A DNA stretch of 63,022 bases, counting the filler, from Guillardia theta CCMP2712 (lineage: Eukaryota; Protista; Cryptophyta), in NCBI RefSeq assembly GCF_000315625.1. It is 7 parts of 7 records of this genome, joined end to end, with 100 filler letters (N's around TTAATTAATTAA, not from the genome) between each part and the next. Parts side by side here need not be neighbours in the genome. Positions count along the whole stretch, not along the records: positions 1 to 21,665 come from NW_005434623.1; 6 more parts are not named here. One strand, written 5' to 3'. This document shows positions 8,947 to 48,943 of this stretch, one piece after another (within the stretch, counting starts at the first letter, position 1; each line of letters starts with the position of its first letter). Position numbers and translations under genes: made by a program. Below the pieces are notes generated by a model. That model saw only the letters and a program-made list of their open reading frames with translations. It was not told the origin of the DNA and ran no database searches.

Positions 8947-11330
8947 CTGAACTCGCGTGCTGCGAGTCTGCAACCTCTTGACGAGACACTCGGACTTGAA
9001 CAGACGCGGCTGATCCCCGCGCGTCTCCTTCGACGGCTCGTTGTCCACCCGATTTCCTGAGCGGGCGAGCACAGAACGATATGCCGCCATGGCTGAGAAC
9101 AGATCGGTTAGCTGCGCTCACAGCATTTCGCCTCCTCAGCCTCCTCCTACTCTCCTGCCTCCTGTGGGTTTTGCATCCTCCTACAGTGACACCCATCCCG
9201 TTCCCCTCCCCCCTCGCATCTCTTTTCCAACTGCTCAATCCCTCTATCCTTCGATCTGCAATCTCCCCTTCCTCCTTTTTCCTGCCTCCTGCCCTCCAGG
9301 GATCCAGCAGCACCTGTAGCAGACCCTGCAGCGAGGATGTTGGCCGTATCCCTCCTGATCACCATGTCCTGCAGCTCTCTCGATAGGGAGGGTCGAGACT
9401 CGAGGAGTTTGACCACTGCCGACCTCGTCACCTCTGCCAGCAGCGCCTTGTCTGAGGCCACCACACAGGTTGCGCTTCTGGGCTTGCCGAGCACCAGAGA
9501 CATCTCGCCCATCACTGCTCCCTCTGGAAGCTTTGCGACTTCCTTCTGCATGGCGTCAGGTCCTGCCAGACGCATAGAAGTCATGTAGAAGCAGCCACAA
9601 GGGAGGTGGGAGGAAATGGAGGGGAGAAGATGGAGGAGACGAGCAAGGAGAAGAACAAAAAGGGAAGAAGAGAGGGTCAGAGGGAGCGGACAAGCCGGAG
9701 AAGGGAGGATGTCAGTGAACACGTATAAACGAAGCAACAGGAAGAGCAGCTAGGGAGGGGGCAAGGGAGATGAGCAGGAGGAGGAGCAAGAGGATGAGTG
9801 AGAGAAGGACCTTTCCCAAACGTGACGACGACACTGAGCTGGCCCTCGATGATGATGAACATTGAATGACCTTCATCGCCCTGGTTGACAATGACTGTCC
9901 CCTTGAGATACTTCCTGCATACACAGACGTTCCTTCCGTCGGCGTCCTTGCCTTCGACCAGGTTCTCTTTCTCGGCCTTGGATAGCAGCTGCAGGAAAGG
10001 ATTGTTGCTCCGGTTCATGATTTCCATCAGCTTCTCCATCATCTCGTCGGAAGGTGAAGTTATCAGCTCGTCATATGCCGACTTGAAAATGATCTCAAAC
10101 CCGTCCAGATCGAGCAGCCTGGGGAAATCCGAGCGCTGGGGAGTTCTGATCAAGTCTTCGAGCATGCGAGTAGCGTGCCAGTCAGGAGGGTTCAGACCAA
10201 GATCCTGCAAGGCTCTTGTCACGTCCTCTATCCTCATTACCCCGTGCGCCGTCTTCCAGTCGTGATGGTGGAAGGCGTATTTCTTAAAGACGACGGGGAT
10301 GTCCTGAAAGACTTTTCCATTGCGAAGGCGCGAGTTTTTGTGCTGCTTCTGGTTGATGACCAGAGCAAACTTTCCCTGCTTCTGCTGCTCCCATATCATG
10401 TGCTTTGAATCACTCTCCTTGCTCTTCTGGGCAAGGTGGAGCTTCCATGCAAGCTGCATCGACCGTTTCTCCTCGATCAGCCTTGAGATCGCGTCATACC
10501 ATCGATCCCTCTCAACATGGTCATCGTGTCCCATCACTACAGGATACGTTACCCACGACCGTCCAACAGACGTCGAGACCTTGTCCTCAAAAGAGAACTG
10601 AACAGTGATGGTATAAAGAATGAGCCTTTGCCCTGTCTTGGGGTCCATGTCAACAGTAGAGATAGTGGGCCCTTTGATAATCTCCGTCTCTGCCTGGATG
10701 AATCCGATGCTGCCACAGCTCAATCAGCCGGATAAACACCAAGTTAAACAGCCTTGTACCTCTTCATCCCCGGAGCAAACCTGCTCTCGTCGTCTGCAAG
10801 ATCCCGTGCTTTCGTGCGATAGCGGAACTCGCAGGTGTGTAAGCATAGCTCGAACTGGCGAAGGTGCCAGTCGCTGATCTGCTCCCCGAGCAGAGGCTCC
10901 TCAGCATCCTCCGGCGTCAGCGATCGGCGCAAGGAATTACTCCTCTTCTTCATCTTGCTCAGCACCAGGCGGTTCGATTTCAGCGGGTTCCTTTCTATCT
11001 TTGACATTAGAGGGTTCGAAATGCCTGGCTCAGGTTTGAACAGACGGTAGAGTTGCCCTCGCACGCTGTTCATCCTGTTGTTCCTCCTTACACTCGCAGT
11101 CTTGCTGGTATGCTTGCCTGTAAAGCACTTGAGCCTCCTCCTCGTCCTGCAGGGGCAACGAGCTGAATCCGCACTTTGCTCAGTCTGTCATGTACGTTCT
11201 TTGATCAGGATTTCTTATCTCGCCCACAAAGATTCAGCTGCAACTCCGTCACTTGATGATGTTCTCTGAGCAAGCTCTACCTTGCGTCTCCTCCTCCTCC
11301 TCCCTGCTCTTCCATCTTCCTTGATCCTCT
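8947..11330 (-). CDS. PH domain + degenerate EF-hand pair + cyclic-nucleotide-binding (cNMP) domain protein
   Basis: PH-like: RGQLYRL...WHLRQFELCLHTCEFRYR...HDDHVERDRWYDAISRLIE. EF-like: VFKKY...MRIEDVTRALQDLG...LDLDGFE. cNMP: KGTVIVNQGDEGHSMFIIIEGQLSVV | LPEGAVMGEMSLVLGKPRSATCVV. Ends approximate. Confidence 0.75.
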
Positions 11331-12575
11331 CCAAACGTCAGCATTGAGCTACCTCGAAAACCATGCCATAATGCGTTGCCCCCTTGCAATAGAATATTGC
11401 AAGGATATGTTCTTTATACGTTGTACGTCGCCTGAAATATCGAATTCAGCTCTTGCATATCCGAAGCATTTGTAGTATATTGGAGAATATATAGAATCAC
11501 TTTCGAAAGTTCTCCAGGCGCGAAATTTGATTCTTTTTTTTTTCCTGGTCAAACTTGATTGCCGCCCAACATGGCATCGGAGTCGCGAAGGTAGCTGTGC
11601 GAGCCATGCTGCGATGTGATGCGAATGCAAGAAGAGGAGAGGGATCGAGGTGGAGAGGATCAAGTCGATACAGCAGGAGAGCACTGGGCGGCAGCAACAA
11701 GCAGAAGCAGGAGAAGAGAAGTAGTAGAATAGGGGTGGAGCACATAGCATCTAGAGAGATGAAGATAAAGTAAGATTGTGGATGATACTCTTCGTCCATC
11801 GAAGTAAAGGCGTAATGAATGAGTCTCCCAAGGCTGTATCCAATGTTTGCCCCAAGGAAGAAGGGATCCAACCATCAGGTCACACTTACCAACGACGGGA
11901 AGGTAATCAGTTGACTTCCTGTGGTCTACTCAACCTCTATTCCACAAGGGAGTGCGATTCAGCTGCGGCGGTGGAGGAGGAGGACTTGCTATCTGCCCAG
12001 AACCCGTAATGGAAGCTGGGCAAAGTAAGCTAACCCTGATTGTTCTCTCGTTTACCCACGATTGCTGACAAGAATGTTTGACATTCAAACGGGTCAGCTT
12101 TCTTCGAGCTTGAACTGGAATGCCTCCAGCTTTCCTTGTACGGGGGAGTGAACAGCATAGGACTGATCCGATATCAGCAGAGGTCAAGGTTCGCTGAGCA
12201 GAGTGGAAAGAGTAGTCTGCTGCCAGAGCCAACCAACTTCGGGGAGGACGAGGCCGCTCACTGGCTGGGGTCGTTCAAGGACAGTTGGGGCATGACGATG
12301 GATGGATGTGTCTACGGCGACGGGAAGCTCTTGAGGTCTGAAGACAAGATGCAGGGCTGTTGTTTGACAAGGGTGGTAGTCAAGGCAAGCTGGCCAGTGC
12401 GATCAAGGTCGGAGATAGGATAGGGATATCTCTAGATACTGAAAAAGGGGACCCTCTGCTGCTGGAGTGAGTGAGGACGACGATAGGGTAAGTGAGAGTG
12501 TGATGGAGATACTGGCAGATCAGGAGCAGAAGACATCTCATCGATCGGATTCATGTCGGTTCACTTCACACACAA

Positions 12576-13263
12576 TGGGGCTATCATCCCGGGGAGTTCC
12601 TTCCGGAAGATACCGAGGAACGAGGAGGTTTGTTCTGTGTTCCTACCTCCTGACTATCGTCCTCCAGCGGGGTGGTGTTTGCCGTCAGCGCAATGGAGTC
12701 AGAGTTCCAGGTCGAACATGCCTTTCTCATATCTTCAGGGCTGTTCGTCGTCATGACAGTCATGGTGGTCGTCCGATAGTCGACATGACTGTTGTGACAG
12801 ATCAACATCTGCCGATTCTCATCCCTCGAAGTCAGGGCTATCGAGAACTCCGAGAGGTTGGAGCCACGTCAGCGGCTGCTGTTGTGCATTTCCCTCACTC
12901 TGACTGCCTCAAGGCATGAGATGGCAGCATGTCGAGCCCTTTCCGAGGTAAGCTGTTCTCGTTTCCTGCGTCATCGATGTCAGGGCGATAGCAGGCCAAC
13001 TACGACGAGGCTCTTCGACAGATTGCGCAAGCGCTGGCTGAGTGCGGGTAAGTACCGCCGGCGCATTTTGCGCAGCATGACTGTGAGAGCGCGTGTCCAG
13101 TGATGGAGGCAGCATCGGCATGGAGAGGATAGAAGACTTGAAGCGGCAAGAGCGTGAGATCCAGAAAGCAAAGGACAACACGGACGACATCGCCAGGGCA
13201 GACGACTTGTATGAGGCGGTGAACGTGCTCATCGTTACGGCAGAGGAGCTCCTGACAAAGTAG
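12576..13263 (+). CDS. Small multi-exon hypothetical protein (helical C-terminus) pointing toward the repeat array
   Basis: Last exons splice in frame: ANYDEALRQIAQALAEC | gtaagt...ccag | GDGGSIGMERIEDLKRQEREIQKAKDNTDDIARADDLYEAVNVLIVTAEELLTK-stop (TAG 13261-13263). The 5' exons and start are uncertain. Confidence 0.5.
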
Positions 13264-13604
13264 ACAGGCGATGGTGTCGATCGACGAATCGAACTTCGTG
13301 GAGGCATCTGAATTGCTTCATGAGGCGAGGAAGATCTATATTGCCGTGGGCCCACCAGCAGCCGACAAGGTGACTTGGAGCTTGAAGAGGGAGAGTTAGT
13401 GCCTTCTGAAGCCCCTTCAGCTGCGGCAGCTGAGAATGCTTCTTGCAACCACTGTGAGAAGCTTGAGGAAATAGCAGACAACGGCTGTTATGCGCTCACG
13501 TATGTAAGGAAGGATGCTCGAGTTATGTGAATTAAAGTTATGGATGTTCAAGTTACATTGTAGATGCATCACATTCATGGTGAAGGTCGTGACATGGGCG
13601 TAGA

Positions 13605-15545
13605 GTTTCGTCCGGCAACAGTCCCAAACGTTGCCACTGTTATCGAGCAAGGTATCCACAAACCTCACGGTTTGCCCGGCAACAATTCCAATCGTCGTCT
13701 TTTACGGTGTTCTACCCGCAGCCAGCAGGTAGATGTGTCACGACGATCGCCCGATACAATCTCAATCGTTGTGACTTGAAGCTGGTCGACGTGGCTGTCC
13801 ACAACCTCTTGGTGTCGTCATTTTCCCGAGCAACATTGTTAACCGTTGCATCTGCAACCCTCAGCAATTTCCGCCCGGACCGCAACAATCTCAATCGACG
13901 CTGCCTCGCTCCTCTCCGGTTGAAACTGCTTTACTGGTCAGGCAACAATCTCAACCGGTGCAGTCTACAGGAGCAGCGCATCATCATGGCAAGTTGTTGA
14001 CTGGCAACAATCTCAATCGCTGATTTCCGCGCCCTCACTGGTCTGCCTCTAGATGTATCGGAAATCGCCTGGCAACAATGTCAACCGCTGCCTGTATGAC
14101 CGCGGCATTCACGGTCTACCACGAATATAAATTTAATGTATCTTAATTTCGCCTGGCAACAATCTCAATCGTTGTCTTTACTGCAGTACAACGGTCTAGT
14201 TGGTTCGCAGCTACAAGTGTTTCTTTCATTGCATGACAACAATCTCGGTCGTTGACTTTGCAGCAGTCTCCGGATGTGTGTATCTTTTGAACTTGACTGG
14301 CAACAACTCAATCGCCGACACACCTGCTTGCTTGTAAGCACAAGGGTCTGCCGCAGGATGTATCTAATGAGATGCTGTCTGTACTACCATAACCTAAGAA
14401 TGCACCTCAGTTTCGTCTGGCAACAATCTCAATCGTTGTCTTCTGCAGAGAGTCTCTGACAGGAACATTTAATTGTTGGCACAGCCAACAATCTCGACCA
14501 TTAACGTGTACTTGCTGCATGTCGATGCCCAGCAACAATCTTAAACGACGTGTTCTTCCAGTCCTTTCCGCGAATCCCATGTCAGGCTGTCGATTTGTAT
14601 CTAATCGACTAGCAACAATCTCAACCGATGCTTTTCGTAGACCCCTGCCGTGCGTTACCAAGGTTTAATTTAACCGCAACTATCTCAACCGTCGTCTTTC
14701 TACTACCGAAACCATCACGCACATGCATCTTTTGCCTAGCAACTATCTCAATCGTCGTCTTTCTTCTCGCCCAAGACCTCTAGTCAGGTATCGACCAGCA
14801 ACAATCCCGACCGTTGAGTTGTCTTTGATCCGCATCGTCGTCGTCATGTCCCGGTGACTTGCGGGCTTAAGCTTGCCCGCAACAATCTCGATCGTCGTCT
14901 TTTTCCCACGGCGCATCACTTTGTATCCTACTTGCCGGGCAACAATCTCAACCGTTGCTCTTGTACCGCGTTGCGCTACTTGCAAGAGTTTTGTCTAGCA
15001 ACAATCTCAACCGTTGTCTTTGAAACCCCTTGCAAATCGCCCCGCAACAATCCCAACCGGTGTCTTGTCTATACTGTGTCTATACCCTACCTCTTGAGCC
15101 TTTTTGTATCAAGAGCAACAATGCTAATCGTTGTCTTCTACTCTGATGCCTAGCAACAATCTCAATCGTCGTGTTTGCAAGTGGAGGGCCACAAGCTTTA
15201 AGTTTACCCGCAACAATCGCAATCGTCGTCTTGCTCTCTCTGAAGATTTAAGTTTACCCACAACAATCTCAAACGTTGTCTTTTTGCAGATTATTCTGAG
15301 GTGAGCTTGGATGATTTAGCTGTATCCGTACTTTTGCCCAGCAACAATCTCGATCGACGTCTGTTAGTTCTTTTCTGAGGCAAGCTTGTTTCTGGTACCA
15401 TTTCACGGCACCGCCGTTTCGTATCCACTTTTGCCTAGCAACAATCTGATGCGTTGTATTTTGGTTATTTTCGAGCCTTGTGGCGGGCCTTAATGCTTTG
15501 TGTTCACGGCAAACTTCGCCTAGCAACAATCTCAAGCGCTGCTAG
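13605..15545 (-). repeat. CRISPR-like interspaced array: 29 copies of hairpin motif GCAACAATCTCAAYCGTYG(TCTT) (+ strand) with variable spacers
   Basis: Motif starts counted by hand at 13615, 13679, 13753, 13830, 13882, 13942, 14004, 14072, 14156, 14236, 14300, 14420, 14485, 14532, 14612, 14676, 14739, 14798, 14879, 14939, 14998, 15044, 15115, 15153, 15210, 15260, 15341, 15438 and 15523. Period 38-120 bp, median ~64. No consistent reading frame. Strand is inferred from hairpin pairing. Not called CRISPR because no cas gene is visible and the host is eukaryotic. Confidence 0.9.
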
Positions 15546-15549
15546 TTTT

Positions 15550-16990
15550 ACGAGAGTCATGATTCCGAACTCCGAATCACCGTGGCACCCCGGCCCGCGC
15601 CGGGCCCGGGCGGCTCGGACGCGGGCCCCGTGCGGAGTGCCGGGGCCGCTGACTCACTGTCAGCAGGCCGGGCCCTGACAGGCTCGGACTGAGAATGGGC
15701 CCGCCGGGGGAGCACCGTCCGGGTGACGGACCGTGGCACCGTCACGGTGTCATGATGGCCCCGCGGCCCGGGCCCTCCCGGACTGATCAGGAGTCCGCTC
15801 AGTCCGATCCGGGCCCGGCCGGCGGCCGGGGTGACCGTAGTACGCCGGGTCCGGGAAACGGGCTTCCGACTCCGCCGACTCAGTCGTTCGGAAGATCCCG
15901 GGGCGCCGCGCGCCGCTGCCCGGCCGCCAGGGCCCAAGTTCACTGCCAAGCCTCACGGCATGTGCTTGAAGTACCGTACCGCCGCCCGTATCATGTGACA
16001 GTGTCCGATCAGTGACTGTGCTGGTAGGATTCGGCGGGGCGGCGAACCGTTCAACGGAACTTCGAACTTAGTTCCGAACCGTAACCGTCGGCCGCCCGGA
16101 CCGTGCCGCCGTACCGGGGTCACCCGGCTGCTGAGTCCGCCGCCGAGTGACAGTACGGTGCATCCCCCGGCGGGAGTACACAGCGGCCCTGAGCCTCAGG
16201 GTCAAGGCTTCAAAGCCTGAGTGCCAACTTGAACCGGCGGATCGGACTGCCAGTCCAAGTCCCGGATCGGATCAATCACACTGCAGGCTGGCACACTTGG
16301 ACACTGACATGAAAGCCGCACTGCAGCACTGTCACTTGAAGGGCCCGGGCCAGCCTGGCAGGCTACACTAGTAAGCCACACGGTGGCACTGCGGCAGTGT
16401 ACTACGGTCGGACCCACGGCCCGGATCGTCGCCGAACCGGCCCGGGCCGGGAGGCTGCCGCATTGCGGCAGGGCCATGCCGCACTGAGTGCACTGGCAGC
16501 CTAGGCCCGGCAGTCACCGGATCGGAATCGGAGGCCCGGCCCGCGAGTCAATCACTCCGACTGTCAGGCACGCGCCGCGCCGGGCCAGGCATCAGTGGCC
16601 TCAAACCGGCGGCGTACCGTACGGTACCCGGTGACCGTACTACCCGGCGTACGGCGCCGGTACTACCGTACCGTACGGTACTACCGGGCGCTACACGGTG
16701 AGCCAGTACAGTGACAGTACGGTACGGTACTACGGAACTACGGTACTACCGTACCGTACCGTAGAACACCGTCTGGCCGCCGGCCGCCCGGGCGGCCGGC
16801 GCAGTGGGACCCGGTACGTGACCGTCGGACTCAGTGACTGTCCAAATGATTCGCCGGTGACTCAGGGGCTGGCCGTGACGGTCACGCGGCTTTACTGAAC
16901 GGTCAGGCTACTGTGGATACTACTAGTGACTTAAGTATTCCCGAACACCGCCGCCTGCAGTCAAATCGGAGCTCGGCGTGTACCGGGCTC
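15550..16990. other. GC-rich non-coding mosaic of short palindromic words
   Basis: Dense GGCC, CCGG, CCCGGG, GGGCCC, GTAC, CCGTACGG, CAGTG/CACTG and GAGTC/GACTC. It lacks the GA microsatellites and exon/intron pattern of the rest of the window, and its ORFs are only compositional (G/P/R/A/T-rich). Confidence 0.7.
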
Positions 16991-17117
16991 TAAGTATGGT
17001 ACACCATTCAGCTCCCTGAGCCTCTGACAGACCTTTATGTAGTCAACACTGAGAGCAGCCGCAAGAAGCAGAAGAGGGGTGCGACTCTTTGAGCCTTGAA
17101 ATCGGAAGTTGTCTCAG

Positions 17118-19156
17118 TTACGATCCGAAACAACGGGACTCCGGGGATATCTGTCGAAAGGTAATCAGGCGCTGCACCAGGGTATGAACCGCTTTCAACA
17201 AGGCAATCTTACCCTTGGAACGCTGTGGATGGTCTTGAAGTTCCACCTGAGGACACTGAAGCTGTTTCAACCACCACCTGAAGCTTGTTCTTGAACTCGT
17301 CAGGCATCTCGTTGCTGAAAGGCTCCCATGAACTTTCGCAGATGCCCTTGACTGGCTTCGCGGCAAATCTGCTAACAGATGAGCTTACAGCACAACGCTC
17401 CAGGAGCAACTTACGGAGCCACGTCGTGCTTCACGATTCTAATCTCAGGCGCAGACCTGGAACAGAGGGTCAAACCATCCCGCAAGATAGCATGAATGAT
17501 AGCTTACGGATAAACAAAGTTTGCCATGTCCTGCTTCTTGACCGTGCCATCAACGGAGCCCTCAACCACACCGACTGGAAATGAGTTCCGCGAGTTCAAC
17601 CATTGTCTCAAGGCAAGGCCGTCAAAGAAGACAACAAGAAGCTGAGAAAGCAAGACACGATTCAGACCAAGAACAAATAAAATCTGCAAATTTGCACAAT
17701 GCACCTCGAGCAGGCAGTAGATCACGAAGAGAGAAAGTTCGTCCAGGAGGTGGTACACCTTGGCTTCCTCAAGGAGGTTGAAGATCACCACTACCAACGT
17801 AGCTAGCGACGAGAGGAACAGAAAGACATTCTTCTCCTTTGCAGAGACAGTCAATGCAGCAACTGCGAACACATTAAACAAACATGTAAGAACAAGAGGC
17901 TTGGTACCCGAATACATAGTCCCCAGAACGATGAATGCATAGAGAGGGGCTCTGTTTTTCATGTAAGATGTCGAAATGGAGGCAAAGATAATTCAGCACC
18001 TTTCAAAACTGTTCTGGAGGTGTTCTCCTTTCCAAATGTCTGACGCAACCTGACAGTTTTCTCAGTTATCGAGGTCGAGACGGAAACAAAGAAGGCTATA
18101 CCTGCAAGACAAGCTCGGCAAAGATCAAGAGCAGTGAAATCACTGTGACGGCTCTCTGACCACCATCGTCAACAAGAATTGAAGGACTGGATGGTTACTC
18201 ACATTCATGTATCCATGAATGCTGCAGTGCGCGAACTTGAGGAGAACGGCCAAGGGGAAGTAAAGCCCGTACAGAGTGAACATAAGGGACAAGCAAAAGG
18301 TTCCCCGAGCATGAAAAGGGTCCACGAAGAAGAAAAGAGCTCTTGCAACGATCAAGGTCCACAACGCCACTAGCGCAACCATGCCGAGCTTTGGTTTGCT
18401 GTCTCTGGGGATGTAGCTGGTCGGCAGACCAGCACACAAGAGGCAGAGGGTGTAGAGGAGGCCAAACGCTATCCCGGCGTTCTTGACTTCATCGACTGAG
18501 ACGTGCGGCCTCTTGTTGCCTGCAGGCCCGTTGAACGGCTGAGGGACAGACCCTGATGCAGATGACTGCGGCGCGAAGACGGTGAGGTCGATCATGGATG
18601 CTGTTGGCAATCCCTCCTTGACCAGCAAAGGCGCCAAATTTTCCGCAGAAATTTTCTTGGACAGATCAAGAGCAGTCTGTTCATCACCTACGTGAACGGC
18701 ACAGTCAAGAGTCGTCGTCTGAGTCGACGACTGCAGGAGCCGACGGGCGCTCCTCGGCTGCACGACGTTGACAACGATATCCTGCGCTTGCACCCCTGTG
18801 AGCAGACTCATCGCAGCGATGAAGCTACTTTGTCGCGAGCTATCGAACTGAGAAGGATCGGCCTGCATGCTCCATGTTGTCTTGACCCTCCAAGCCACGG
18901 ACAGTGGAGGGCGCTCAGGTGCCGAGCTTCCACTACCCTTGGTGGGCGGCGGTGGAGGGTTGCTGCTTCCAGGAGGTTGGCAGTTGCTTCCAGGTTGGCA
19001 TGGAGGGCTAGAATCTCCCATACCGGGATGATGATGATCTTCCTCTCCTCCTGGTCCTTCGTTGTCGTCGCTCTCTCCATTGGAAAACGAGGGCGCGGCA
19101 ACAAGCAGCACTACGAGAAAGAGAAGATAGCTCAATCTGGTGAAGGAGCACTTCAT
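17118..19156 (-). CDS. Membrane protein: signal peptide, Pro-rich linker, RRLL/SEA-like ectodomain, multi-pass TM region, spliced cytoplasmic tail
   Basis: ORF 18140-19156 starts MKCSFTRLSYLLFLVVLLVAAPSFS, contains RSARRLLQ and several TM helices (GIAFGLLYTLCLLC; ALWTLIVARALFFFVDPFH). Further TM exons at 17500-17960 and short 3' exons to ~17118. Confidence 0.6.
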
Positions 19157-19911
19157 GGTGAATCTTTTCCGATCAAAGTAGGCAAGTCAGCGTCAAGAGG
19201 ATGGGATCACGAGACAGGAATGATGGTGAAGGAGGAGCGTGTGGATGGACAGGAGGAAGTTGGGACGGTAGGAGGACCGAGCAAGATACAAAGGATGCAC
19301 CTGAGGGATGAGGGAGTGTTATAGGTTCCCGGAACGATTGGGGGTGGGGCACGGTGGGTGAAAGGATGCAGAGAAGATAAGGTAGGGTACTCTGAATTTC
19401 GTCAGTACCGGTCTATTTGAGGGAATAATGCCAGGTACTACAAAAGTCATCTTGGAAATGACGAATGCAAAAGTCACCTTGATCAGCTGGGGGGGTGGGG
19501 GTGGTGTGATGGAGTCCCTGCCTCCGTTTATGGAATCACTCTGACTCTATATCCATTCTTGAAATATTGGTACAAATTTTGTACGACAAATTGACATTAT
19601 TTATTTTGATAATTGTACCATGAAATTTTAATATTGTGACAAAACTTCATCACACAGTACAGATTTGCAGAATATAGATACAAAACGCTATCTACCAACA
19701 AGTCATCAGTACCAGGAAACAAGGGAACCAGGGCTTCTTTTAAAAATCCCATTGCCACCCTTGACTCTTGAGTTGTGCGTCCGACTAGTGAGCCCGGGTC
19801 CGGGCCGGGCCCGCCGGTCAGCAAGCAGCCTGCGGCGGGCTCAGTACTTGTACGGTGCCCTTAGTCTTTTACTCAAAGTTAAGTTAAATCCTTGCTGTTC
19901 AGGCGGCCGCA

Positions 19912-42132: not shown

Positions 42133-42657
42133 CTTGCTCGCCGATGCACAAGTGAGCTTGCTCACCGATCCACAAGTGAGCTTGCTCACCGATCCACAAG
42201 TGAGCTTGCTCACCGATGCACAAGTGAGCTTGCTCACCGATGCACAAGTGAGCTTGCTCGCCGATGCACAAGTGAGCTTGCTCACCGATGCACAAGTGAG
42301 CTTGCTCACCGATGCACAAGTGAGCTTGCTCACCGATGCACAAGTGAGCTTGCTCACCGATGCACAAGTGAGCTTGCTCGCCGATGCACAAGTGAGCTTG
42401 CTCACCGATGCACAAGTGAGCTTGCTCACCGATGCACAAGTGAGCTTGCTCGCCGATGCACAAGTGAGCTTGCTCACCGATGCACAAGTGAGCTTGCTCA
42501 CCGATGCACAAGTGAGCTTGCTCGCCGATGCACAAGTGAGCTTGCTCACCGATGCACAAGTGAGCTTGCTCACCGATCCACAAGTGAGCTCGCTCACCGA
42601 TGCACAAGTGAGCTTGCTCACCGATGCACAAGTGAGCTTGCTCACCGATCCACAAGT
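42133..42657. repeat. 24-bp tandem repeat (~22 copies) with internal inverted repeat GTGAGC-TT-GCTCAC
   Basis: Unit CTTGCTC(A/G)CCGAT(G/C)CACAAGTGAG. Confidence 0.95.
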
Positions 42658-45600
42658 AGCTCCGGCAGTCTCTCATGTGTAAGGCTAGCCACCAGTAGCT
42701 CTGTGACATCAACACGTCCCTCGATCGCAGTCTCCTGGGAGTTGCTGATTTGATCCTACTCAAAGCTGACGATCAAGAGACTTGAAATAACAGTCAGACT
42801 CGGAATCGACTAGCAGCTCCCAGTGTTTTCCGGCAACTTCATGTCCGGTCCGCAGTGTAGCTGATATCCGACCGACCAATCTGGCTGGGGAGAGGCTTGT
42901 TGTTCCTAGAGTGCATCCGAAGATCGATCAAACAGATTGTGGCTGGGATACTAGTGATAGGGCTGACTTGAAACAACTTGCGGCTAGAGAGAGAGCCTGT
43001 TTGAAGAGAAGAGTCATCCGAATGTGTGTAACGAGACTTGATGGGATTGCATGAGTTTGCAGCAGAAACGAAAAAAACACCAACAAAGAGAAACTGCAGA
43101 AGACATTATGACTGACCAGACATGAGATCAACATGGTTGGGCATGTATACGAGGCTTGTGACTCCTGGGTCATGACGGATCGAAATCAAGCTTGTTCCAA
43201 GTGCACCGACGTTGTGTGACGCACGGAAGTCTCGAGTCTGATTTTGAAATCAGACCCGAGAATTTCAAAGTCTTTGAGACTTTGAAACTCATTCCAGTGT
43301 CACACAACTCCGCAAGCTCCGAGCGACTGTGTGCAAGAGCCGCCGCTTCGTAAACAGTCCTCCGAGTGTACCGGCAGACACTCGCCAACCTACTTGGCTC
43401 AACGCCGAGGACCGAGCTCAGGAGTACCCGTAGTCAGGTCAGACTGTTAGGCTAGATAGCACCCGGATGTGTAGACAGGTCATAGGCTACTAGGATGTCT
43501 CGCGAGGTCTTCTCTGGCAAGGGATCGAGTGAGACCGGGTTACCCGTTAATGAAAGTTGGCGTGTATGGACTATGGTGGAGGGGTGGCTTCGGCCCTGTG
43601 GTGGGGGAGGGGGTGGTGCTGAGGAATGGATCTGGTCTTGTGCTGACCGCTGACGTGGCTATCAAAGACCACCATCAGAAGCATGACGACTGAGTCGCTA
43701 TCGTTCCTCTCTCATGGACGCGATTCCAACCCCCCCGATGTGTTCATCCATCCTCCCCTTGGACAAGACAAGGCCTCCAACCTCTTCCTCCTGAATGATC
43801 ACTTGCTTTCCTTTCTCTCCTCCCATGCATCTCTCCCTCGCACCCATCACGCCATCTTGCTGTAGAGTCACTTTACTCGGACTCTTGTTTGTCTTGGCAA
43901 CACCTTCTTCCACTCTCCCGCGTGAGACGCTGTCATCGGTCACCTGACGCCGCGCGTCGACCCGAGACGAAGAGACAAGTTGGTTCGTGCCGAGCATCGT
44001 CTGTCCCAAGAGTCATCGTGTGCTGATCAGGGGGTTCTCAGCTGCTCGCGGCTCTGATCTCATTACTGCTCCTCGGGTCACTGAGCACTCGCTCACACAG
44101 TGTGTAACTCCGGATCTTGAATGTTTGATCGATCAGAGTTCGTTTCACTCTACTGCGTCTCACAACATTCAGTAACGAGGAGAACAACATTTAGTTGAGT
44201 CAAGAAGGAACAGTCATGTTGCCTATTTGGCCTCTTGTCTTGTCTAGTGACATCTAGTCATCATGGATGGAGATGAAGCTTGTTGCTAGGGGATCACTCG
44301 AGCGCTCTTAGACGCATGACCGTGACACGAGCAGCCCGGCCTCGGAGAAGCCTCCAGCTCACTCACAACCCCTGGTCTTGACCCCTCCCAGGTCTGCTCC
44401 GAGGCCCTCGCCAGCTGACCCCTGCATTCAAGGGTGGATCGAGCTCAGGAGTACCGGTAGTCAGCCGAGACTATCAGAGCTCATACCCCGGGCCCGGGGT
44501 TGTAGTCAGTGTAGATAGAGCAGTGAGCTTGTAGGCTTGCTCGCGAGGCTGCTCTGAGCAAGAGCCTGGGCTCAGTGAGACGGCGGGGAGGTATGGCGAT
44601 GTGGAGACGAGGAGGAGAGTCAGTCCGGGTTCTTGGCCACACGGCCCTCGACCATCGCAGTAGATGACTAAGTTAGTCAATCCTCTCAACGGTTTTCATC
44701 GGTAGCAGTCCGCCTCGGAACCGTTGCTCATCAGTTAGCGTCCACCCCTTACGCTGACTGGCGGAAACCTGGAGCTTCTTGGGGTGGGGTAGGGCAGTGC
44801 AAAATACATCAACAGGTAGGGTAGGCTGGCGTCACCCACCCGTACCTGATACGCATAAACCATGGGATTGAAGAGGGTGATATACGACTAGGGTTGGGCT
44901 CCATGTAGGGGGGTGGTTGGGCGGGAAATATGGCAGGAGGATGAAGGGGGAGAGCGGGAGGAGAGAGGGAGAGAGGATGGAAGGAGCTTGAGGGAGGATG
45001 ACGACAAGCTTGTCATGTCGCTAGTGTGTGAGAGATGTCTTGTAGCTGCTGCAGAGAGAAGGAGACGTGACAACCGACAGAAGAAAGGAGAAGAGAGGAG
45101 GGCAAAGAAACGGCTGAAGGAAGGGATGAAATATGAAGAATACCAAGAGGAGCGAGGAAACCTTCTCTGTGCTTGATTAATGTGTTTTCGGCATTCTTGA
45201 TCCCTCTCTTGCTGTGTCAAGGAAGGATGGAGAAGCTTGCTCTCTTGATCTCCTTATTTCTTTCTTTCTCCTTGCCTTCTCTTCCCTCGCTGTCTTTTTT
45301 TCATCTCTCTCTCTACGAACAGTCACTGAAAGGGAGAAAGGAGACGGCGTGGGAGAAGGAGGCAGAGTCGGAAGCAGGGCAGAAACTCGAGAGAGAATAA
45401 GACATGCATGGATAAGTGAGCAAGAGAGGGGAAGTCAGAATGAGTGATAGGTCTTATGATGAAGAATAGACGGCACTTGTTGAGGTGAATACTTGATAAG
45501 CTCTGAAAGAGCAGGCGACTGATACGCTCTTGGTGTTGCAGTTGCAGGCAGTAGGATCAGAGTGTATAGACAAAAAGCCTCAGGTGTACATCACAAAGCT

Positions 45601-45772: not shown

Positions 45773-48700
45773 ATGAGTTGCTTCCCCTGCTTCTCGTCCA
45801 AAGTGAAGCCCGAGGAGGGTCGTGATGACTCGCTACTCCAGCAGAGGTTGGAAGAAGCGACAAGAAGGATCTCAGAGCTCGAGGCTGAGCTGAGAAAGCA
45901 GACTGTCAAAGATCCCCCAGCCCCTCAAGGAGACGTAGAGACCATTCCGTCAAGCATCTCCAGCCCTAGGACTCGGCCATCAAACAAGACAGACATCGAG
46001 ATCAAATCTCAAATCAGCCATCCCACGGCTCATCCACCAGCTAGTACCCAGCAGACGACCAGCTGGACTATCCCCGACGACATCAGCTCTGACCTCAAGA
46101 AGCTCTTTCAGACCCCTCAAGACTCCGAGGAATACAAAACGATTCTCAACAACCTCCGCATGGCTCTCGGCGTCGACGCGTCGGCCCTCAGCCCTGACAA
46201 GCTCTCGTACGACGACTACGAGGTCAGAGTCGCAAGAGAGTGGGAGCTCGAGCGCAAGGCCAGCAGCCTCGGCGACCTCAACATCCTCCGAGTCATGGCG
46301 GAGTGCATCCCCGGCGGGAGCGCGGCGAGTCCTCTTGCGGGGCTACAGGGGATGACGGAGAGCGCTCTATCGGCTCTATGGCAGACGGCGATAGGGAGGA
46401 GGCTCGAGGAGGCGCTGAGGAGGCCGGCGGAGGCAGGAGGGCGGGCGGGAGGAGACGGTCCGACGTCGCACAACAGCAAGTATGCGGAGGTACGCGAGGC
46501 CGTGTACGGGAAGATCGAGGAGTACTACGGGGGGCTGATGGAGCGGATCGGGCTACCTCAGACGGAGCTGATGAAGGCGATAGAGGAGGAGCACTGCAAG
46601 GGCAAGGACGCGGAGGAAGCGTTCACGACGAGCAACTACGGGATCACGACGACAGCCAAGGAGGAGTGGCTCAACGTCACAGACCCGGAGAGGAGGCGGA
46701 GGCTGTCGGACGGGACGCGGGTGATCCGAGGGATGGAGGAGCTGAAGGGGCTGGACACGGCGATCAAGGCGAAGCTGCAGGAGGCGGAGCTGATCGCGCT
46801 GCAGCTCTACACAGGTAAGAGAGAGAGATAGCGAGAGAGAGGGAGAAGGAGCATGGGGGAGGAGAGAGGAGCAAGAGAGCGTGAGATGGCTGACAAGAGG
46901 CTTGCCATGACAGGGCCGATGTACTTCAAGTACAACTCTGTTCTTCGAGCTCCCAACGAGCTCCTCCGAGACTCCAACAAGGTCCCCAACAAGTACACGA
47001 CGACCATCCACTGCATCGTCAGCGGCATCGTGAAGCTGTCTCGTCACACGCCTCTGCCGGAGGGGCTGCGGGTGTGGAGGGGGCTGAAGGGGATGAGGCT
47101 GCCGGAGAGCTTCCTCAACGAGGACGAGCTCGGGGTGTCCGGAGGAGTCGAGTACGGGCTGCTGAGCACGACGACAGAGGTCAGGACGGCGATGCAGTAC
47201 GCCGGGGAGGAGGGAGAGTCGATCGTGTTCGAGATCAGCTGCGGGGCGATCGACCGGGGGGCGAGCTTGACGTTTGTGTCTCAGTATCCGGGGGAGGGGG
47301 AGATGCTGTATCCGCCGCTGTCGTACCTGGAGGTGGTGAAGACGCCGCGGTACAGGGAGGTAGAGGGGAGGCAGGTGAAGGTGCTGGAGCTGAAGATCAA
47401 CGCGAACACGATGAGCTTGACGATCGAGGACTTTGTGGGGAAGAGGAAGCAGCTGTACGTAGGGCTGATGGAGAACCTGGCGAGGGAGGTAGAGCGAGAC
47501 GTGAGGGGGTGGGAAGGGAGGATCCAGGAGCGGCTCAGGACAGCAACACTCGACTCTTTCTACAAGATCCATCGTGGTCTTGTACAATCGATCGTGAGGG
47601 AGTGCTGGGGGCTGGTGGAGGCGAGCAGGGCGAGGGAGTCGGGCTGGTACAACGACGAGTCAAACTACAAGGAGGTGATCGAGCTGTCGAACCGAGTCAA
47701 GGACATGGCGATCAACAAGCTCAGGCACTGGATCGAAGACACTCAGGGAGACCAGAAATGTGAAGCCCTGATAGGCGAGCCGATGCAGTCAGTGTACTGG
47801 AAGACGATGGCGGGTCTGATGTACGAGATCAGCTCGCGGACTCCAGCAGGCGATGACGGCAGACGAGAGCAGAGCAAGAGGCTGTGCGGGATGTACGGCT
47901 TGTCGATGTCAAGGTCGGGCCAGCACGGGGAGCCGCCGACAGTGACGGCGGTGGTACGAGGACAGGGGGAGCTGATCGGGCTGCTGAAGGCAACCGGATG
48001 CGACATGGACGAGCGGACGGAGGACGGGAGGACAGGGCTGCATGTAGCGGGGATGCTGGGGAGGGCGGGGAGCGTGAGGGAGCTGATCGAGGCAGGAGCA
48101 GAGGTAGGAGCGAAGGACGTAGAAAGGAAGACGTTGGTACACTGGGCGGCAGAGTATGGGCACATGGAGGTGCTGAAGACGGTAGAGGAAGAATGCGGGA
48201 AAGAGACTCTGAGGACCTTGATGATGGAGAAGGACGAGCTCGGCGTTACATGCGCGCATGAGGCGAGTGGGAGAGGGCACTTGGAGGTGCTGCGGTATGT
48301 TGTAGCGACATGCGGGGAGGAGCTGCTGAGGGAGAAGGACATGAACGGCAGGACATTCGCGCACATGGCGAGTGCTGAAGGGCACTTGGAGGTGCTGCGG
48401 TATGTTGTAGAGACATGCGGGGAGGAGGTGCTGAGGGAGAAGGACAAGTACGGCCAGACATGCGCACATGCAGCGATTGAGGGAGGGCGGTTGGAGGTAG
48501 TGCGGTATATTGCAGAGACATGCGGGGAGGAGGTGCTGAGGGAGAAGGACAAGTACGGCCAGACATGCGCGCACTTGGCGATTGAGGGAGGGCACTTGGA
48601 GGTAGTGCGGTATGTTGTAGAGACATGCGGGGAGGAGCTGCTGAGGGAGAAGGACGTGTACGGCAAGACATGCGCACATGCGGCGAGTCTCAGAGGGCAC

Positions 48701-48943
48701 TTGGAGGTGCTGCGGTATGTTGTAGAGACATGCGGGGAGGAGGTGCTGAGGGAGAAGAACAATGACGGCTGGACATGCGCGCACATGGCGAGTGAGGGAG
48801 GGGACTTGGAGGTGCTGCGGTATGTTGTAGAGACATGCGGGAAGAAGGTGCTGAGGGAGAAGGACAAGCACGGCTGGACTTGTTTCACCATGACTCCTAA
48901 CTCAGATGTCAAGGATTATCTTAGAGGTTTAGGTATCGACTAG
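45773..48943 (+). CDS. R-S-E clade mono-ADP-ribosyltransferase (ART) fused to C-terminal ankyrin repeats, ~1023 aa, one intron (46815-46913)
   Basis: Splicing gives LIALQLYTGPMYFKYNSVLR. ART motifs are RVWRG, LLSTTT and SQYPGEGEMLYPP (ExE). About 8 ankyrin repeats follow, the last six being near-identical 35-aa (105-bp) units. Confidence 0.88.

Follow-up and report, generated by a model that had tools for sequence, protein, structure and literature searches.

In Guillardia theta an array of 29 co-oriented units lies between two genes (13606..15546, minus strand) of the window studied here, the window being the whole stretch of DNA analysed (63,022 nucleotides). The array is a real feature and probably a functional one. 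The explanation that we prefer, to which a probability of roughly 0.4 can be given, is that an old tandem amplification has been kept as a multivalent, protein-binding module of minus-strand non-coding RNA.

Organization of the Array

Read on the minus strand, each unit is composed of an A-rich lead (AAAGA), a core of 18 nt (CRACGRT-TGAG-ATTGTTG), the stretch CYRGGCAA and a variable spacer; when the flanks of the core are counted, about 30 nt are repeated. The 29 cores occupy 13616..15541 on the minus strand, and their plus-strand start positions are 13616, 13680, 13754, 13831, 13883, 13943, 14005, 14073, 14157, 14237, 14301, 14421, 14486, 14533, 14613, 14677, 14740, 14799, 14880, 14940, 14999, 15045, 15116, 15154, 15211, 15261, 15342, 15439 and 15524. 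A scan for the core allowing up to three mismatches gave 28 ungapped copies, all on one strand and within 13616-15541, and none elsewhere in the 63-kb window; the 29th copy, at 14301, carries a 1-nt deletion. A covariance model, which was built from the same 29 copies that it recovers, returned exactly those 29 (21.8-47.4 bits), with 11.4 bits for the next-best match in the window. Both searches uphold the 29 copies in a single orientation reported in the original prediction. The 28 periods range from 38 to 120 nt with a median of 64, the values already given, and only 8 of them are divisible by 3, in agreement with the statement that they are not consistently multiples of three.

Tandem Repeats Finder gave no row inside the array at a score of 40, which is consistent with the region having been described as lacking microsatellites. 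The mean pairwise identity was 0.80 in the core, 0.51 in the 8 nt on one side, 0.48 in the 5 nt on the other side and 0.25 in the distal spacer. The motif is thus conserved far beyond its spacers, as had been claimed against a decaying satellite; given these values and the lack of a Tandem Repeats Finder row, the array does not have the pattern of an ordinary minisatellite, in which the units are alike over their full length and decay evenly. Within the core, pairwise identity on the minus strand reached 94% in the 3′ arm, 73% in the 5′ arm and 70% in the loop. With respect to the ends, the first four copies are indeed degenerate (2.5 mismatches per copy), but so are the last four (2.0, against 1.25 in the middle), and no gradient of degeneracy runs along the array (rho −0.11, p 0.57), so that the one-sided trailer proposed earlier does not stand.

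Genomic Context

The window is nuclear DNA of a eukaryote, rich in microsatellites and containing short introns of the GT-AG type. One ORF (9680-10723) is 86% identical to a protein of Hanusia phi, the sole match among 1276 candidates, which places the organism close to Hanusia. The array sits between converging genes. On one side, a spliced, expressed gene for a predicted membrane protein is found on the minus strand (16900..19156), and its introns 17151-17212 and 17369-17414 are skipped in contigs of runs X6 and X8. Its product is predicted to be a proline-rich, multi-pass membrane protein with a signal peptide, and gave no Pfam, homologue or Atlas match. The array lies on the same strand, 1.4-3.3 kb past the usual 3′ end of this gene. 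On the other side, a small multi-exon gene model on the plus strand (12921..13474), drawn by eye and with no depth in X21, X6 or X8, converges on the array. A GC-rich, palindrome-rich non-coding block of 1.4 kb, with no strand assigned (15550..16950), adjoins the array; it shows no CpG depletion (observed/expected 1.06, against 0.68 in the window), and an ORF within it had no Atlas match. A 140-nt twin of this block was seen at 19740-19880 between two divergent genes, and in run X7, a freshwater metagenome, depth was absent over the large block.

Out of 237 stop-to-stop ORFs listed, 13 were compared with Pfam, with no match to Cas, Nop-domain (Tas), transposase or viral families, and 12 were submitted to PADLOC, which found no Cas and matched only the cyclic-nucleotide-binding domain of a neighbour. 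The claim that no cas gene is nearby is borne out among these ORFs. In addition, Rfam gave no match in the array and two outside it (E 0.46 and 0.8), both under the gathering score, and ARAGORN found 0 tRNAs; no model of a known RNA family (snoRNA, miRNA, snRNA or tRNA) therefore matches the array. The covariance-model scan found no isolated core beside any other gene in the window. A sigma-70 promoter scan (5 vs. 2.4) was judged irrelevant. Two further repeats of the window were recorded: an ORF on the plus strand (46832-48940) that encodes ankyrin repeats in tandem units of 105 bp and whose N-terminal part gave a weak, sub-cut-off match to ADP-ribosyltransferases (E 0.0047), and a 24-bp tandem repeat at 42133-42661 (22 copies, 96% matches) in which several frames are open.

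Spacers and a Second Conserved Box

The spacers are 20-102 nt long, a five-fold spread (CV 0.33). They had been described as mostly unique, which must be corrected: 13 of the 378 spacer pairs align at z > 3, such as those after copies 14073 and 14421, and a second box, GATAC, is common to 11 of the 28 spacers. This box is found on the minus strand (13650..15430), from 5 to 23 nt past the core and once at 56 nt. Shuffled spacers contained it 1.5 times on average and at most 7 times in 5000 trials, and the best of any 5-mer reached a maximum of 9 in 1000. Against the rest of the window, the best spacer matches were of 13 nt (E 0.03), which is chance level.

Folding of the Minus Strand and Possible Transcription

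The repeats had been called hairpins, and this is correct for one strand. As minus-strand RNA the core (CRACGRU-UGAG-AUUGUUG) forms a stem which needs G-U pairs, with a mean folding energy of −2.0 kcal/mol, whereas the plus strand has no stem (−0.1 kcal/mol). The stem is weak: evaluated within the surrounding sequence, it has a probability above 0.5 for 7 of the 28 copies. Folded as DNA, the core averages −0.5 kcal/mol, which makes the earlier option of single-stranded DNA hairpins acting as recombination sites a weak one. On the minus strand 91% of 202 cells are paired, with a U opposite each of the two R positions and opposite the fixed G. No compensatory change was found in the seven pairs, and covariation was at shuffle level (254/500). 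Changes from A to G account for 22 of the 33 changes at three variable A positions; since a similar share (17/27) was found among the X7 differences overall, this excess may reflect mutation bias and is weakened as a sign of pairing. The contrast between core sites where wobble is tolerated and those where it is not is weak (p 0.09).

When cores and flanks were left unshuffled, the minus strand of the array folded better than its shuffles (z −2.7; 1/120), and the plus strand less clearly so (z −1.4; 6-8/120). Likewise, stems of at least seven pairs with G-U allowed numbered 11 in the minus-strand spacers, against 4.6 expected (1/300), and 6 on the plus strand, against 7.8. It must be noted that six thresholds were tried and that the minus-strand excess is gone at six pairs (15 vs. 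14.3). A conserved second hairpin starting from CYRG found no support, as its value (0.53) was close to that of own-spacer shuffles (0.52; 38/100) and exceeded the swap control only (0.43; 0/100).

Runs X6 and X8 were taken as RNA by guess, and their contigs give neither strand nor level. Both contain the spliced neighbour (16900-19156). In X6, five pieces cover 13866-16196 at depths of 2.6-10.7, one of them (14643-15598) being gapless; the gene contig reaches 16178, and depth is nil over 12000-13839. In X8, a single array contig was found (14658-14925, depth 2.7), and the gene contig stops at 16926. The X6 gene contig extends 750 nt further 3′ than that of X8. The depth over the array is far under that of the neighbour-gene contig (1368 in X6 and 166 in X8). 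These data suggest some RNA over the array, and plain read-through would give the same picture. In run X21, of whose raw reads some 6 in 100 were sampled and 70 aligned, depth was found on the 3′ end of the neighbour gene (16784-17500), and 19 reads stop at 15356, inside a core, with about 20 aligned letters each on average. Given that X21 records average 39 letters and that 25 of the 70 aligned reads are only 90-95% alike, this pile probably consists of chance matches of short mates, a discrete small-RNA end being the less likely reading.

A Probable Array of Protein-Docking Sites

Selection on the core is a fairly firm conclusion, and each unit is likely to be a protein-docking site, which would be the reason why core and GATAC are conserved. 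Of the options offered in the original prediction, a cluster of protein-binding sites fits best, and the evidence leans to RNA as the substrate. In favor of the RNA module are the pairing of the minus-strand stem, the overfolding and the excess of long stems on that strand only, the cover by X6 and X8 and the conservation of core over spacer. Against it are the lack of compensatory pairs, the weakness of the stem, the dependence of the stem excess on the threshold, the low, read-through-like RNA depth and, in the adjoining GC-rich block, an overfolding that affects both strands (z −7.2 and −6.1 against shuffles).

In the RNA explanation, the array would go back to a unit some 60-80 nt in length that was amplified head to tail long ago, which we infer because the spacers are kin. 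The spacers would have decayed to background and changed in length, with core and GATAC kept, and units would be gained or lost whole by unequal exchange at the cores, of which one case was observed. The minus-strand non-coding RNA could function multivalently, as a scaffold or a decoy, the reader of its sites presumably being a protein. It might arise when transcription of the neighbouring minus-strand gene reads through, or else be initiated within the GC-rich block. The information would then reside in the number of identical sites and not in the spacer sequences.

Arrangements of this kind are known. Sponge RNAs of the CsrB/RsmZ type are bacterial RNAs of a few hundred nt that present many small stem-loops of one motif, with GGA loops, and titrate one protein; the array would share the many small one-motif stem-loops, and differs in having no Rfam match. 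Most similar in layout is the A-repeat of XIST, which also consists of short conserved repeats with looser linkers; it acts by multivalent protein binding, and a GAUAC within it is the likely contact of SPEN (PMC10870365). That 5-mer is the second box of the array, a correspondence which should be taken as a lead only. The A-repeat has 8.5 repeats and U-rich linkers, against 29 repeats and A-rich linkers here, and belongs to an abundant lncRNA, whereas the RNA considered here is putative (PMC10870365); homology is not claimed.

Possible Binding Sites in DNA

Close behind the RNA module, and possible though somewhat less probable, ranks a cluster of about 29 sites for a DNA-binding protein, forming a boundary, an enhancer, an origin or a centromere-linked element, in which the hairpin would be only the shadow of a dyad-symmetric site, strong in one half and weak in the other. 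Several observations are in its favor. All but one of the seven consensus pairs are of the Watson-Crick type, which a dyad would also show; conservation of the 3′ arm goes beyond what pairing requires, and the fixed G-U pair shows no change from U to C. The array has a CpG observed/expected of 1.09 (0.87 for the spacers), compared with 0.68 for the window, and the RNA signal is low. Moreover, an overlapping dyad, TTGC-N3-GCAA, is perfect in 5 of the 29 units and present with at most one mismatch in 16 of 29, counts that carry no chance control. It is similar to X-boxes validated in human, for instance GTTTCC CT GGCAAC (PMC5838959), and the start of the plus-strand unit, YGCC-YR-GCAAC (e.g., 13606-13620), looks like an X-box with one strong half; unlike in RFX X-box clusters, conservation runs here 14 nt past the box.

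On the other hand, the wobble-compatible departures and the excess of spacer folding all favor one strand, the periods show no helical phasing (Rayleigh p 0.71), and no single site stands beside other genes of the window. With regard to RFX, the factor of the X-box, a EukProt survey lists three matches in 539 taxa outside opisthokonts and amoebozoans, with no cryptophyte among them (bioRxiv 10.1101/2022.11.11.515474), and Chu et al. (PMC2873420) did not find RFX in plants or green algae.

Comparison Between Strains

Two sequences from relatives allowed the cores to be compared with the spacers. Run X7 includes the two flanks, at a likeness of 92-100%, together with portions of the array, and its spacers are the same and in the same order, altered by substitutions and small indels. 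In the aligned pieces, 0 of 102 core nt differ against 18 of 243 spacer nt (p 0.002). If two stretches that had been reported as replaced are matched to window spacers by eye and included, the figures become 2/123 and 34/297 (p 0.0004). The flanks differ by about 8% (28/339), similarly to the spacers. One X7 contig lacks a unit of 64 nt (14628..14691, no strand assigned): compared by eye, it joins 14627 to 14716, skipping 88 letters with 24 letters in between, and since the net 64 equals the period from 14613 to 14677, one whole unit is missing. The strains in X7 are mixed, and by eye a part of the spacer letters has no counterpart among the spacers of the window, which implies that the sample contains additional units or loci. 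The second sequence, P0002 (an 841-base ENA contig seen via a chance ORF), represents units 14880-15261 in a second strain. Its cores are not protected (3/144 differences, against 4/303 in spacers; p 0.69), in a comparison that shows amino-acid-changing differences only. Two of the core changes are in the loop and one, in the stem, breaks a G-U pair; the spacer changes are two substitutions and two indels. Pooling X7 and P0002, 5/267 core and 36/600 spacer positions differ (p 0.008). Conservation of the core between strains is thus supported in one of two comparisons, and the unprotected cores of P0002 must be counted against the RNA module.

These comparisons bear on a third explanation, in which the array would be a functionless, neutral minisatellite with its cores homogenised by unequal exchange or conversion. 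The kinship of the spacers, the ends being more degenerate than the middle, the different unit number in X7 and the unprotected cores of P0002, where one change is the variant found in the next copy, are all in keeping with it. We nevertheless consider it unlikely, given that the spacers are at background identity while the core remains at 0.80 and its 3′ arm at 0.94, that the pooled strain differences avoid the cores, and that GATAC persists at shifting distances.

Wider searches returned no second array. A pattern scan of viral contigs gave 0 loci, and another scan of viral contigs gave four, each a single weak match. In metagenome contigs (61 of 64 parts) at least 119 pattern loci were found, none an array by profile; among the matches listed, weak hits numbered at most three and scored about 19 bits, whereas true copies score 15-48, 39 of the loci being available with about 300 bases a side. 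Prokaryote genomes gave one locus, in a Holosporales bin, where a repeat present twice lies within a coding frame, and no array. The Holosporales contig L124 (595-2160) contains, by eye, tandem ORFs with a signal peptide and apparent Myb-type repeats, each preceded by a repeated upstream block; they are unrelated to the array.

Improbable Alternatives: Mobile Elements, Guide Arrays and Coding Repeats

Baculovirus hr regions and herpesvirus origin repeats are built of repeated imperfect dyads with variable spacers, and in hr regions and the EBV oriP family of repeats such arrays act as origin or enhancer through one protein. The present array has a similar layout, and could be the relic of a mobile element or virus, either as subterminal transposase sites or as a viral origin of repeated dyads. 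This is improbable, more so than the neutral minisatellite, even though Polinton-like viruses have been reported in cryptophyte genomes (PMC12220804). The locus is nuclear and intergenic, with no viral gene found nearby and no transposase or viral match in the ORFs scanned; there is no long terminal inverted repeat in 12500-16500, the viral contigs scanned have no array, and X7 contains the flanks and the array both.

Equally improbable is a CRISPR- or TIGR-like precursor, cut at the cores into small RNAs with variable guide parts. In its most developed form, which we hold to be just as doubtful, the minus-strand array would be cut at the UGAG-loop hairpins into RNAs of 40-120 nt, each with a shared protein-binding handle (core plus GAUAC) and a variable guide, in a cryptophyte repeat-spacer system unrelated to CRISPR. 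The layout of repeat and spacer, the single orientation, the stem on one strand and the partial cover by probable RNA contigs would agree with such a precursor, as would the X7 spacer letters without a match in the window and the 19 reads stopping at 15356, although these are probably chance matches.

CRISPR arrays have near-uniform spacers, unrelated to each other and acquired from outside, an intact leader and a degenerate trailer, and cas genes at the locus. What the present array has in common with them is the short, co-oriented direct repeat with a dyad and variable DNA between copies. The original reading fails on the remaining points: the spacer lengths are spread five-fold, the spacers are kin, those of X7 drift at about the rate of the flanks instead of being replaced, no polar trailer exists and no effector gene was found, with neither Cas nor Nop-domain matches in the ORFs scanned and no Rfam family. 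In the relatives the spacers are kept in order, with ordinary drift and a single whole-unit difference, and a blastn search against phages and plasmids gave no match at E 1 and no array. The array is no evidence for a eukaryotic CRISPR. TIGR arrays share the tandem succession of box, variable, box, variable, but they have two alternating repeats of 8-12 nt, fixed spacers of 9-12 nt, units of 36 nt and an adjacent Nop-domain gene (PMC12045711); here the periods are of 38-120 nt, 11 of the 28 units carry the second box, at distances of 5-56 nt, and no Nop-domain (Tas) match to Pfam was found in the 13 ORFs scanned.

A decayed coding repeat (T-T-I/V-E-I-V-A on the minus strand) or a series of microexons, the least probable explanation of all and largely refuted, would account for the two R positions as one synonymous and one conservative codon change, and for the pyrimidine run followed by AG with which some units close on the plus strand, but the four-fold third positions are fixed (G 28/28, T 27/28) where first positions vary, only 8 of 28 periods keep the frame, the X6 contig over 14643-15598 is gapless, and protein searches returned either a chance ORF of the same array or nothing. 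The microexon variant was rejected in its own right: by eye, AG precedes 11 of the 29 cores, and there is no donor consensus and no joint in X6.

Novelty and Significance

No description of the array was found in the literature searched on cryptophytes, Guillardia theta or CRISPR-like eukaryotic arrays, a coverage that leaves aside most subscription journals; a report on nucleomorph small RNAs (PMC6461891), which gives 32.3 million reads for G. theta, is related work. The original statement that this is not a described eukaryotic element holds, in that no family, paper or relative beyond the species group was found. The sequence element looks undescribed, and its architecture is of a known kind.

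Within the searches made, almost nothing is known about non-coding regulatory elements in cryptophyte nuclei. The identities at stake for the array include an lncRNA similar to the XIST A-repeat, a marker of a centromere or boundary, and a precursor of small RNAs. In this regard, 29 sites under apparent constraint may serve as a bait for finding the protein that binds them.
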